From the NCBI GenBank assembly GCA_031370785.1, contig JANMQY010000060.1, forward strand, positions 4,826-68,825: a stretch of DNA of 64,000 nt, given 5' to 3'. Positions 46,873 through 51,514 of the stretch are shown here, in pieces. A program made the position numbers and the translations under genes. The number at the start of each line of letters is the position of its first letter. Positions within the stretch are counted from its first letter, which is position 1. The notes below the pieces were generated by a model that was not told the origin of the DNA, did no database searches, and was given only the letters and a program-made list of their open reading frames with translations. This stretch comes from Candidatus Eiseniibacteriota bacterium (lineage in GTDB: Bacteria; Eisenbacteria; RBG-16-71-46).

Positions 46873-48822
46873 CTATGTCAGGTTTATTGGTAAGTCAACA
46901 ACTGAGGCGCTGCTGACGCTCAAATCGTCGTCCTGCGCGACCGCCCGGTCGGACCTGGTGGAACGCGCCCCGAGGAACTGGAGCTGATAGAGACGTGAGT
47001 AGATTCCGCCCCGCGCCAGCAGCTCGGCGTGCGTGCCGACCTCGCGAACCCGCCCGCGGTGCAGCACCACGATGCGGTTGACGTCCTGAATCGTGGACAA
47101 CCGATGCGCGATCACGAGGCAGGTGCGGCCGCGCATCAGCCGGCGCAGCGCGTCCTGGATCAACTGCTCGGTGTGGGTGTCGACCGACGAGGTCGCTTCG
47201 TCCAGAATGAGCAGGCGCGGGTCGCGGACCAGGGTGCGGGCGAAGGCCAACAGCTGCTTCTGCCCGGCCGAGAGCGTCGCGCCGCGCTCCCGCACCACCG
47301 CGTCGTATCCGCCGGGCAGAGCCATGATGAACTCGTGCGCGTGCACTTCGCGGGCGGCGCGCTCAATCGCCTCGCGGCTCAGCGAGCGGTCGCCGAGCCG
47401 CAGGTTGCTCTCGATCGTGCCGCTGAACAGGAACACGTCCTGCAGCACCAGCCCGATGTGACGGCGCAGGGTGCGCGCATCCCAGCTCTCGAGCGGATGG
47501 CCGTCGACGCGGATCGAGCCTTCCTGCGGCGCGTAGAAGCGCATCAGCAGGCTCGTGAGTGTGGTCTTTCCGGATCCGGTCGCGCCGACCAGCGCGACAC
47601 GCTCGCCCGGCTGGATGACCAGCGAGACGTCTTCGAGCACGCGATTCTCCCCGTCGTAGGAGAAGGAGACGCGGTCGTACTCGATGTGGCCGGAGAACGC
47701 GGAGTCGCCCGCGCCGTCTGCCGCGGGCTCGGACTGTCGGCCGACGTGCCGGCCGACCAATACGGGGCGGGCCTCCAGCGCAGGCCCATTTCGCATGCCG
47801 GAGTGTGCGGCTCCCGGGGCGAGCGCCGGGTCCTCGGGCGCGTCGAGAAGTTGGAAGATGCGCTCGGCCGAGGCCATGGCCTGCTGAAGGATGTTGTACT
47901 TCTCGCTCAGGTCCGAGATCGGACGGAAGAAGCGCTGGGTATACTGGATGAACGCGACCAGAGTCCCCAGGGTGATGCCGGTCCACATCACCTGGCGGCC
48001 GCCGTACCAGACGATCAGCGAGACCGCGAGCGCGCCCACCAGTTCGAGCACCGGAAAGAACACCGCGTGGTAGAACACGGCCCTCAGGTTGGCGTCGCGG
48101 TGCCCGGCATTCACCTCGCGGAACTGTTCGTAGTTGCGAGGCTCGCGGTTGAGCATCTGCACCGTGCTCATGCCGGTGAGGTTCTCATTGAGGAACGCGT
48201 TGAGCCGGGCCAGGCGCGTGCGGATGTCGCGGAACGAGGCGCGCACCCTGGAGCGGAACACGATGGTCACGATCGCGATCAGCGGCAGGACCGAGAAGGT
48301 CACGACCAGGAGCTCGACGTTGAGCTGCGACATCGCGAATATGATCCCGATCAGCGCGAACAGGTCGCCGAACAGCGCGACCACGCCCGCGGTGACCAGC
48401 TCGTTCAGGACATCGACGTCGTTGGTGACGCGCGTCATCAGCCGTCCGATCGGGTTGCGATCGTAGTAGGAGATCGGCAGGCGCTGCAGCTTGGCGAAGA
48501 GCGCGGTGCGCAGGTCGAGCATCACCTGCTGGCCGACGCGCTGCATGAGCTGGTTGTGCAGATAGCCCAGCCCGAACCCGATCCCGAGCACGGCCAGAAA
48601 CAGGAGCGCGACGTTGTCGAGGAACATGAGATCCCGGTGGCGGATCCCGTTGTCGATCGCCTCCTTGGTCAACCACGGAAAGACCAGCTGCACCAGCGCA
48701 TCCGCGATCACGACCAGCCCGGCGAACAGCACGCGCCCGCGATAGGGCGCGAGGTATCCGAGCAGGCGCCGCATCAGGCGCTGGTCGTAGGCGCGTCCCA
48801 ACACCTCGTCTTCGTGGCTCAC
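46873..48822 (-). CDS. ABC transporter ATP-binding protein/permease (half-transporter, exporter type), subunit 2
   Basis: Its GTG start overlaps the upstream stop (GTGA). It has six TM helices, then an unusually long roughly 50-aa Pro/Ala/Gly-rich insert before the NBD (GATGSGKT, LSAGQKQ, ILDEATSSVD). Confidence 0.85.
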   Translation of the reverse strand: MSHEDEVLGRAYDQRLMRRLLGYLAPYRGRVLFAGLVVIADALVQLVFPWLTKEAIDNGIRHRDLMFLDNVALLFLAVLGIGFGLGYLHNQLMQRVGQQVMLDLRTALFAKLQRLPISYYDRNPIGRLMTRVTNDVDVLNELVTAGVVALFGDLFALIGIIFAMSQLNVELLVVTFSVLPLIAIVTIVFRSRVRASFRDIRTRLARLNAFLNENLTGMSTVQMLNREPRNYEQFREVNAGHRDANLRAVFYHAVFFPVLELVGALAVSLIVWYGGRQVMWTGITLGTLVAFIQYTQRFFRPISDLSEKYNILQQAMASAERIFQLLDAPEDPALAPGAAHSGMRNGPALEARPVLVGRHVGRQSEPAADGAGDSAFSGHIEYDRVSFSYDGENRVLEDVSLVIQPGERVALVGATGSGKTTLTSLLMRFYAPQEGSIRVDGHPLESWDARTLRRHIGLVLQDVFLFSGTIESNLRLGDRSLSREAIERAAREVHAHEFIMALPGGYDAVVRERGATLSAGQKQLLAFARTLVRDPRLLILDEATSSVDTHTEQLIQDALRRLMRGRTCLVIAHRLSTIQDVNRIVVLHRGRVREVGTHAELLARGGIYSRLYQLQFLGARSTRSDRAVAQDDDLSVSSASVVDLPINLT

Positions 48823-50617: not shown

Positions 50618-51514
50618 TCAGGGCTTGCGCGTTCCGCCGAGGAAGCCTTGCAGGCGGTTCAGCCGGGTCTGCTTGACCGCCACGCCCACGTAGACCTGAT
50701 CAACGTGCAGCGCGTTCCTTGATTTGGCGGTGTGCAGCGATCCGCCGATCAGGTCGAGGTGGTCGCCCACACGATACACCAGCATGGGCCCGGACAGTTG
50801 AGTCGTGATCTGGGCGTTGGTCGTCCCCGGGATGCCGTCGCCGGACAGTGCGATGAACGTGTCCTTGTCGCCGGGCTTCGCTCCGAAGGAGCCTCGATAG
50901 CGACCGGCGACGAGCAGCTTCTGCCCCAGCCAGAAGCCCAGCGTCACCCCTGCGAGGGTCTGGTCGGTCGGCGCATGCTTGTCCAGGTAGTAGCGGTAGC
51001 CGCCCGACAGCTCGAAGAATCCCCGTCCGCCGAGCGCAGTCCCCAGCTCGAGCGAACCCAAGAAGCTCTGGCGACCTTCGCCCAGGTGCGGGTTCAGCGC
51101 GCGGTCGTAGCCCATCGGCGCGAGCCACTGCACTTCGAGCGCGGCGTTCGGGACCAGACGCCTGCGCACCCCGAAGCGCAGGTCGCCGAATCCGGTCTCG
51201 GTCGCGTTGAACCCCCCGGCCGCGCCCGTCCGCCGGCTGACGCTCAGCGCCGGGATCTCGAGAAACGCCGACATGTTCTTCTTCCAGCCGAACTCGTTGT
51301 AAGAGACGATTCCGCGCTCTTCGTGCAATCCGCCTGAGTTGAGCGGGCTGCGGACTCCGGTCAGATCGTAGTAGCTGTCGGCGGAGAAGACGCTCGCGCG
51401 CAGCTCGTAGTGGCGGTCGCCGGGCTCCGGAAGCCAGGGATCGGCGAGCGCCGGGCCCGAAGCGAGGAGCACGGCGGTGAAGAGCAGCGAAGATGCGGCA
51501 GAGCGCGCGATCAT
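50618..51514 (-). CDS. outer-membrane beta-barrel protein (MetA-pathway/phenol-degradation-like 'transporter' family candidate)
   Basis: Signal peptide MIARSAASSLLFTAVLLASGPALA. The product has alternating Gly/aromatic beta-strand texture (GGYRYYLD, LVAGRYRGSFG), is 298 aa, and sits directly upstream of the two ABC half-transporters. Confidence 0.5.
   Translation of the reverse strand: MIARSAASSLLFTAVLLASGPALADPWLPEPGDRHYELRASVFSADSYYDLTGVRSPLNSGGLHEERGIVSYNEFGWKKNMSAFLEIPALSVSRRTGAAGGFNATETGFGDLRFGVRRRLVPNAALEVQWLAPMGYDRALNPHLGEGRQSFLGSLELGTALGGRGFFELSGGYRYYLDKHAPTDQTLAGVTLGFWLGQKLLVAGRYRGSFGAKPGDKDTFIALSGDGIPGTTNAQITTQLSGPMLVYRVGDHLDLIGGSLHTAKSRNALHVDQVYVGVAVKQTRLNRLQGFLGGTRKP

Follow-up and report, generated by a model that had tools for sequence, protein, structure and literature searches.

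A probable near-cognate start codon, most likely CUG in one lineage, for the first subunit of a heterodimeric ABC exporter in Eisenbacteria

Introduction

How does translation begin in a gene that encodes a conserved N-terminus ahead of any ATG, GTG, or TTG codon in its reading frame? The question is raised by subunit 1 of a predicted heterodimeric ATP-binding cassette (ABC) exporter encoded on the minus strand of contig JANMQY010000060.1 (assembly GCA_031370785.1) from a Candidatus Eiseniibacteriota bacterium, of which we analyzed a stretch of 64,000 nt, here called the window and used for all coordinates. A first-pass annotation of the window, made from its letters alone, had reported the missing start and pointed to two CTG codons as candidates. 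Comparison with orthologs indicates that the gene probably encodes a functional TmrB-like half-transporter, the first of the heterodimer, with a near-cognate start in Eisenbacteria, which in the window is most likely CUG 50567 (minus-strand codons are cited by their first base).

Results and discussion

The subunit 1 frame has no canonical start codon ahead of its conserved N-terminus

The subunit 1 frame ends at a TGA stop (48821–48819), and the nearest in-frame stop upstream is a second TGA (50702–50700), which opens a stretch of 83 codons, from 50699 to GTG 50450, that contains no ATG, GTG, or TTG in a codon-by-codon listing. The last 39 of these 83 codons encode LFRGLKARLLPYLARYRRGLVWGVSCVALTNIIALAQPQ. 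Canonical triplets make up 7.2% of in-frame codons in the genes of the window, and the probability of a canonical-free run is 0.054 for the 39 coding codons and 0.002 for all 83. As a bare pattern, the lack of canonical triplets is only mildly unusual; the absence carries weight because the frame already encodes a conserved N-terminus before any canonical codon becomes usable. Every sequence statement that the first-pass annotation had made holds.

Before GTG 50450, the near-cognate codons in frame are CTG 50621, 50567, 50543, and 50510 and ATC 50474 and 50471, and CTG 50567 is the only one of them with a Shine–Dalgarno (SD) motif. The order on the minus strand is GGAGG (50580–50576), an 8-nt spacer (catctcct), CTG (50567–50565), and TTC (50564–50562), so that GGAGG lies 8 nt from the CTG and 11 nt from the TTC; spacing is 4–9 nt for those canonical starts of the window that have a 5-mer SD. 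This GGAGG is identical in the window's own gene and in three closely related loci, L001–L003 (L numbers denote loci and P numbers proteins). Translation from CTG 50567 would define a coding sequence at 48819–50567 on the minus strand, with 582 codons plus stop, for a TmrB/BmrC/SmdA-like half-transporter. The alignment column of this CTG, the candidate initiation codon, is called position 1 below and that of TTC 50564 position 2; in the ortholog alignment, the TTC (Phe) is homologous to the start codon of the family. An ATC at 50574–50572 was also considered as a start and rejected, as it is in the wrong frame and begins 1 nt after the end of GGAGG, too close to the SD.

The N-terminal helix and first transmembrane helix belong to the protein

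Family models place the N-terminus of subunit 1 close to CTG 50567, which is residue 45 of the stop-to-stop frame. Model position 1 of the NCBIfam SmdA, MsbA_rel, and MsbA models projects to frame residues 45–49 (50567–50555), and the Pfam ABC_membrane match begins at residue 68 (profile position 5), so that GTG 50450, which is residue 84, falls 20 residues inside the domain. Residues 9–573 of TmrB (5mkk_B, 6raf_B), the best half-transporter match in the PDB (E 5e-128), align with residues 6–574 of the CTG-started protein. In 15-codon blocks, G+C content at third codon positions (GC3) rises from 0.33–0.67 upstream to 0.87 exactly at codon 45. Counted from position 1, the length is 582 codons in all five genes compared in the window's clade (the window's gene, L001, L002, L003, and L084) and likewise in L008, L010, L088, L115, and L138. 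These results support the N-terminal helix and the first transmembrane helix (TM1) as part of the subunit 1 protein, and the family models, TmrB, and the relatives described below bear out the first-pass claim that the annotated GTG start is wrong.

Orthologs across Eisenbacteria carry a near-cognate codon at position 2

We fetched ortholog DNA using the N-terminal 193 residues as the query (80 metagenome loci and 80 loci from species-representative genomes) and anchored the loci on the alignment. This survey comprised 116 distinct loci of 63–99% identity, nearly all labelled Candidatus Eisenbacteria and including 46 of 55 species-representative genomes. At position 2, the codon was ATC in 67 loci, ATT in 27, ATA in 3, ATG in 3, TTG in 2, TTC in 5, and another triplet in 9. 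Thus, 97 of the 116 loci carry ATC, ATT, or ATA at this position (called ATY loci below). Where the first-pass annotation had entertained a start of the orthologs at the downstream GTG, the alignment instead puts their start at the ATC, ATT, or ATA next to the CTG. Among 25 outgroup loci at ~50% identity, from Bryobacteraceae, Terriglobia, and other Acidobacteriota, most have ATG at exactly position 2.

The surroundings of position 2 were those of a translation start. An SD-like motif ends 5–9 nt before it in 91 of the 97 ATY loci, and in 63 of the 94 that have an in-frame stop within the fetched DNA, the interval from that stop to position 2 contains no canonical codon. The upstream stop lies a median of 21 codons, and in several ATY loci only 1–3 codons, before position 2, and the next canonical codon mostly falls at residue 21–40, within TM1. 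In L099, inspected by eye, the sequence reads TAA GCA GCC ATT CGA..., and the first canonical codon is a GTG giving a 543-aa product. Per-column amino-acid entropy across the orthologs is ~3.3 bits upstream, 1.09 bits at position 2, and low downstream; the upstream columns have scattered stops and equal G+C content at all three codon positions, whereas the downstream columns are conserved and codon-periodic.

Codon choice at position 2 also departs from that of the gene bodies. ATT accounts for 27 of the 97 ATY codons (28%) at position 2, whereas in the remainder of these genes it supplies 61 of 3,034 Ile codons (2.0%; binomial P = 3e-23). Across the genes, third codon positions are occupied by C, G, T, and A at fractions of 0.53, 0.42, 0.03, and 0.02, respectively, and G makes up only 3% among ATN codons at position 2. 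On a neighbor-joining tree, ATC, ATT, and ATA replace one another at least nine times, and changes to ATG number only ~3. Position 2 therefore appears to behave as a start codon, unlike an ordinary Ile codon, and the ATY codons, the SD spacing, the close upstream stops, and the ATG of the outgroup together argue for a conserved near-cognate start. Judged from these alignments, absence of a canonical start characterizes the subunit 1 family in Eisenbacteria, in which ATG is a rare state. The start of subunit 2 is canonical and overlaps the subunit 1 stop in 88 of 89 orthologous loci (GTGA in 71, ATGA in 17), so the near-cognate start is peculiar to the subunit 1 gene.

Public annotation reflects this situation unevenly. 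NCBI annotation already starts two of the orthologs at near-cognate codons, P0009 (L087) at ATT and P0048 (the body of L029) at ATA. The annotated starts of the 120 best database orthologs fall at 38 positions, with 15 at position 2, 55 truncated into the conserved N-terminus, and 31 extended into non-coding sequence.

Two further observations concern the surveyed loci. Five that lack ATY at position 2 (L022, L026, L061, L093, and L101) have ACG at position 1. The ACG follows an SD-like motif by 6–8 nt in four of them; the exception is L022, where none was found and which also has an ATG five codons upstream. ACG may be a further near-cognate start in this exporter family. Separately, copies of the Eisenbacteria-type operon with 66–86% identity occur in metagenome-assembled genomes (MAGs) of the 'SMAG' series that are labelled Saccharimonadaceae, Acidiferrales, Methylomirabilota, Verrucomicrobiia, and Udaeobacter (L084, L126, L128, L129, and L138); these are probably mis-binned contigs or wrongly labelled genomes.

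CTG at position 1 is retained where position 2 has changed

The clade of the window comprises its own gene, L001, L002/L003, and L059/L084 (86% identity), and its sister clade reads CCC-ATC at positions 1 and 2. Within the window's clade, position 1 is invariably CTG with an SD ending 8 nt before it, and position 2 varies (TTC, TTG, or CTA); CTG 50567, which the first-pass annotation had listed with its GGAGG and 8-nt spacer, remains the best start candidate. The SD of this clade lies 11 nt from position 2, a spacing found in only 2 of the 97 ATY loci. A second clade (L008, L009, L010, L012, L020, L024, L028, and L115) has CTG at position 1 in seven of its eight members, with ATC, TTC, TTG, or AAG at position 2. 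The combination CTG-TTC occurs in four loci, which represent two independent events.

Fourteen loci have no near-cognate codon at position 2, and 12 of them carry CTG (six), ACG (five), or GTG (one) at position 1. Among the 97 ATY loci, by comparison, only 8 have CTG there. This enrichment of CTG at position 1 where ATY has been lost is suggestive, in counts of loci that are not phylogenetically independent, and it points to CUG, rather than another triplet, as the codon that would be decoded as the start in the window's lineage.

Close relatives confirm the TTC codon and indicate purifying selection

Three close protein relatives were found: P0002, which is the window's own annotated product (543 aa, from GTG 50450 at 50450–50448), P0001 (96% identity, 581 aa, first residue L), and P0003 (98% identity, 521 aa). 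At the DNA level, L001 (JGI; 96% amino-acid identity) reads CTG-TTG where the window reads CTG-TTC, and L002 and L003, which are Logan assemblies of two different runs, read CTG-TTC as the window does. The codon at 50450 is GTC in L002/L003, a synonymous difference, and there the gene caller moved its start 22 codons further downstream. The window's gene and L002 differ by ~80 substitutions, and both assemblies are ~4.6% different from the window in DNA. Because L002/L003 differ from the window and yet carry TTC, this codon is independently confirmed and is no sequencing error.

The ratio of nonsynonymous to synonymous differences per site (pN/pS) is 0.08 between the window's gene and L002, both of which have TTC (pS 0.14), and 0.11 between the window's gene and L001, and comparison of the window with L002/L003 revealed no frameshift or stop in the 582 codons. 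L010 and L115, which are both CTG-TTC, share 81% amino-acid identity with each other (pS 0.38) and have intact 582-codon open reading frames (ORFs). A pN/pS of 0.08 between two TTC lineages indicates strong purifying selection despite the lack of a canonical start and argues against recent inactivation, which the first-pass annotation had suggested as one explanation and against which the intact L010 and L115 genes also speak. The three lineages represented by the window, L001, and L002/L003 are nearly equidistant (pS 0.14–0.16).

The first three 39-codon blocks of the gene (50217–50567) contain few synonymous differences, with 0, 2, and 0 relative to L001 and 1, 3, and 1 relative to L002, compared to 2–9 in each of the remaining blocks. 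An mRNA-level constraint near the start and a recombination tract are both possible causes of this early scarcity.

Points against a CUG start and alternative explanations

Several points weigh against initiation at CUG 50567. The independent events that combine CTG with loss of ATY are few, amounting to three to four changes in two clades. CTG is the commonest Leu codon in GC-rich genomes, and its conservation at position 1 is weakly diagnostic. A possible 6-bp hairpin, CGGAGG-CAUCU-CCUCUG (50565–50581, minus strand), pairs the SD with the CUG in the minimum-free-energy fold of 50500–50625 and, if formed, would lower initiation further; it is not significant compared to shuffled sequences (z = −1.1) and was seen only in the window and L001–L003, and the anti-SD is missing from L084 and from the ATY orthologs. 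Finally, L001 has TTG at position 2, so the lineage may have used TTG until recently, with TTC as a fresh loss; the polarity of the TTC/TTG change is ambiguous.

This last point leads to the alternative that survives best, although we consider it unlikely, namely that TTG or ATC at position 2 mutated to TTC and silenced or nearly silenced subunit 1, so that the gene would be a recent pseudogene or be expressed only marginally. TTC is no known initiator, L001 is 96% identical with a TTG that the equidistance of the lineages allows to be ancestral, and the public annotation of the window's gene (P0002) has no full-length start. A fresh loss is difficult to reconcile, however, with a TTC that is common to the window and L002/L003 across 14% synonymous divergence, at the low pN/pS and with the intact frame described above, or with retention of CTG-TTC in L010 and L115 at 81% identity. 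Silencing would also uncouple subunit 2, whose start overlaps the subunit 1 stop as GTGA, and the SD lies 11 nt from position 2 even in L001, beyond the 5–9 nt of the family.

A second alternative, which we regard as distinctly unlikely, retains initiation near this site but makes it codon-unspecific: ribosomes that terminate at the TGA (50620–50618) of the upstream outer-membrane-protein-like (OMP-like) gene would be held by the SD and restart at any triplet in the P site, including UUC, or at a mixture of CUG and UUC. The upstream gene does end only 53 nt before position 2, in an arrangement that is syntenic across Eisenbacteria, and many codons that are not near-cognates initiate in E. coli at 0.01–1% of the AUG level (10.1101/063800). 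Restart at any triplet predicts no codon conservation, however, whereas nearly all orthologs keep a codon with one mismatch to AUG at position 1 or 2, and the length of the spacer varies from 17 to 112 nt.

Use of the annotated start at GTG 50450 is very improbable. It is the first canonical codon in the frame, and many database orthologs are annotated from similar internal positions, but the resulting 543-aa protein would lack the elbow helix and most of TM1. The codon has no SD, sits inside the ABC_membrane domain, where it encodes an internal Val as TM1 ends, and is GTC in L002/L003; the 39 codons upstream of it are highly conserved and codon-periodic across the 116 loci; and the scatter of the 120 best hits over 38 annotated starts points to a gene-caller artifact.

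A start at CTG 50621 (50621–50619), the other first-pass candidate, is scarcely credible. That annotation was correct that this CTG is in frame and overlaps the upstream stop as CTGA, which resembles the ATGA and GTGA couplings elsewhere in the window, and its use would add an 18-residue N-terminal extension that includes RRAGSGRPRLPGPEASP. As a start it fares poorly, as it has no SD, GC3 over 50621–50567 is ~0.47 as in non-coding sequence, the region is unconserved (~3.3 bits), and orthologs have in-frame stops 1–20 codons from position 1. There is a negligible chance that faulty sequencing or assembly has obscured an ATG, GTG, or TTG: the window does come from a metagenome-assembled genome, and TTC needs only one base change to become the canonical TTG, but TTC is also present in two other assemblies, which were made from different runs and diverge from the window elsewhere, and the family as a whole lacks canonical starts.

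The exporter pair and its operon

Subunit 2 (46873–48822, minus strand) is a TmrA-like protein of 649 aa whose GTG start at 48822 forms a GTGA overlap with the subunit 1 stop. Both subunits contain a Pfam PF00664 domain (ABC_membrane, six transmembrane helices) followed by PF00005 (ABC_tran, the nucleotide-binding domain). As read from the translations, subunit 1 has a degenerate Walker B motif, LMLDDC, in which Asp replaces the catalytic Glu, and a canonical signature, LSGGQKQR; subunit 2 has the Walker B motif LILDEA and a degenerate signature, LSAGQKQL. The pair shows all three features that define the class and is thus predicted to be a heterodimer of the TmrAB/TM287-288/BmrCD type with one degenerate ATP site. 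The SmdA model (NF008055) was the top NCBIfam model for subunit 1 at 453 bits against a cut-off of 845, and SmdB (NF008056) ranked sixth for subunit 2 at 380 bits against a cut-off of 746, with MsbA_rel at the top. With scores so far under the cut-offs, we rejected assignment of the pair as SmdAB equivalogs; the proteins are related only.

The OMP-like gene (50618–51628, minus strand) has a weak Phenol_MetA_deg match (Pfam E 1.6e-5), and its start is ambiguous between ATG 51628 and that of a 298-aa version called in relatives. It is syntenic with the exporter pair in most Eisenbacteria loci, where it has a conserved C-terminus (..KQTKLNRLQGFLGGxxxP*) and generally ends 17–112 nt before the exporter start. 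These features suggest that the OMP-like gene, subunit 1, and subunit 2 form a three-gene functional unit. Within 50400–52000, including the 51-nt spacer, no promoter-like site and no terminator-like site on the minus strand was found. An Rfam scan of the window matched no family, and the window contains no tRNA genes. Read-through or frameshift fusion of subunit 1 with the OMP-like gene was dropped as an explanation, as frames and spacer lengths vary among orthologs and a fusion of barrel and exporter is implausible.

A model for initiation of subunit 1 and its relation to known systems

In the model that we favor, with initiation at CUG 50567, transcription would probably come from the upstream OMP-like gene. 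A 30S subunit would bind GGAGG and place the CUG in the P site, where initiator tRNA would read it with one mismatch, as fMet, to yield a 582-aa product, (M)FRGLKARLLPYL..., and subunit 2 would then be translated via coupling at the GTGA overlap. When position 2 turned to TTC in the lineage of the window, initiation most likely passed to the adjacent CUG. As for why the start is weak, we infer that it presumably keeps output of the exporter below that of the upstream gene on the shared mRNA; alternatively, by analogy with infC, a plausible role would be modulation dependent on initiation factor 3 (IF3).

A broader proposition, possible but doubtful enough that we offer it tentatively, is that selection keeps subunit 1 on a weak, IF3-discriminated start across Eisenbacteria, with a codon that drifts among AUC, AUU, AUA, CUG, and ACG over two adjacent positions and is hardly ever AUG, and that the operon is thereby set or regulated at initiation. 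If this is correct, regulation might, for example, be tuned to the upstream outer-membrane gene or answer IF3 activity or stress, and the exporter would join infC as the second broadly conserved case of natural near-cognate initiation and would be the first transporter among such cases.

The E. coli pcnB gene starts at AUU. Near-cognate starts and their conservation are already known from pcnB and infC, and the exporter adds a member to this group. The infC gene uses an AUU or AUC start across bacteria, and codons of this kind are disfavored by IF3 (PMC5499595). Initiation in E. coli from CUG, AUC, AUU, or AUA reaches ~0.02–3% of the AUG level (10.1101/063800). Like infC and pcnB, the exporter gene appears to have a near-cognate behind a normal SD that is conserved across many species, with AUG avoided and AUU over-represented relative to codon usage. 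It has no canonical start, an SD-spaced codon with one mismatch to AUG, and conservation beyond codon usage, the last for CUG in two clades only. It differs from infC in encoding a membrane protein rather than a translation factor, with no obvious autoregulatory logic; in conservation of the near-cognate within one candidate phylum, the outgroup having ATG; and in a codon that is mostly AUC and shifts over two adjacent positions and among AUC, AUU, AUA, CUG, and ACG. Start-codon turnover in prokaryotes shows purifying selection for AUG (Belinky et al., 2017, PMC5622118). The exporter resembles such turnover in the replacement of one start by a nearby one under selection, but there AUG is favored, whereas here AUG is rare and weak codons are maintained.

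As an exporter, the pair resembles TmrAB of Thermus thermophilus, TM287/288, and BmrCD in having two adjacent half-transporter genes and one degenerate ATP site; unlike those, the Eisenbacteria pair shares its operon with an OMP-like gene that lies ahead of it. The two subunit genes follow the order of SmdA/SmdB (MdlA/MdlB), with scores far below the equivalog cut-offs of these models. We know of no characterized exporter of the TmrAB/TM287-288/BmrCD type with a non-canonical start, and our literature search found no paper linking Eisenbacteria or this exporter to non-canonical starts.

The reading proposed here would correct a public gene model whose 543-aa product is missing the elbow helix and TM1, and it exposes a systematic annotation failure in which gene finders routinely mis-annotate the exporter start. 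It would also provide a well-sampled, natural, conserved near-cognate start with an ATG outgroup, as a basis for asking why weak starts persist, and a start-site hand-over from AUC to CUG without gene loss that can be traced across lineages. For a gene in a MAG, the absence of ATG, GTG, and TTG need not signal an error or a pseudogene.

Other candidate near-cognate starts in the window

The first-pass annotation had paired the exporter gene with a minor pilin gene as a second CTG-dependent gene and had taken the two as a hint that the organism may tolerate CTG initiation. A minor-pilin-like ORF (17832–18299, minus strand) indeed offers no canonical codon from TGA 18299 to GTG 18188; initiation at CTG 18248, which follows GGAGA by 6 nt, would produce a classical short prepilin leader (MRTSERG|FSLIEIL). 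Homologs speak neither for nor against use of this CTG: the search yielded only three, whose long leaders had been assigned from distant canonical codons upstream, and the CTG sits in a four-codon insertion, LRTS, that is absent from them (..DC----ERGFSLIE..). After ..LIDRYA, the C-terminal half of the ORF is unrelated to the homologs in any frame.

General tolerance of CTG initiation is neither needed nor shown by these data, as only one of the 38 coding-like ORFs of the window has a near-cognate as its sole start with a strong SD. An SD-guided scan of the same 38 ORFs, a set that the lower-GC pilin locus lies outside, found no other such case, and we saw no evidence for organism-wide relaxed initiation. 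Long leaders free of canonical starts at 7226, 16890, and 38849 were rejected as not coding-like. At 55214–55220 (minus strand), a CTG lies 5 nt after AGGAG and two codons before ATG 55214, which opens an ORF (..RLTMRTPP..) and is 11 nt from the SD, in a layout like the CTG-NNN-start arrangement of the exporter gene.

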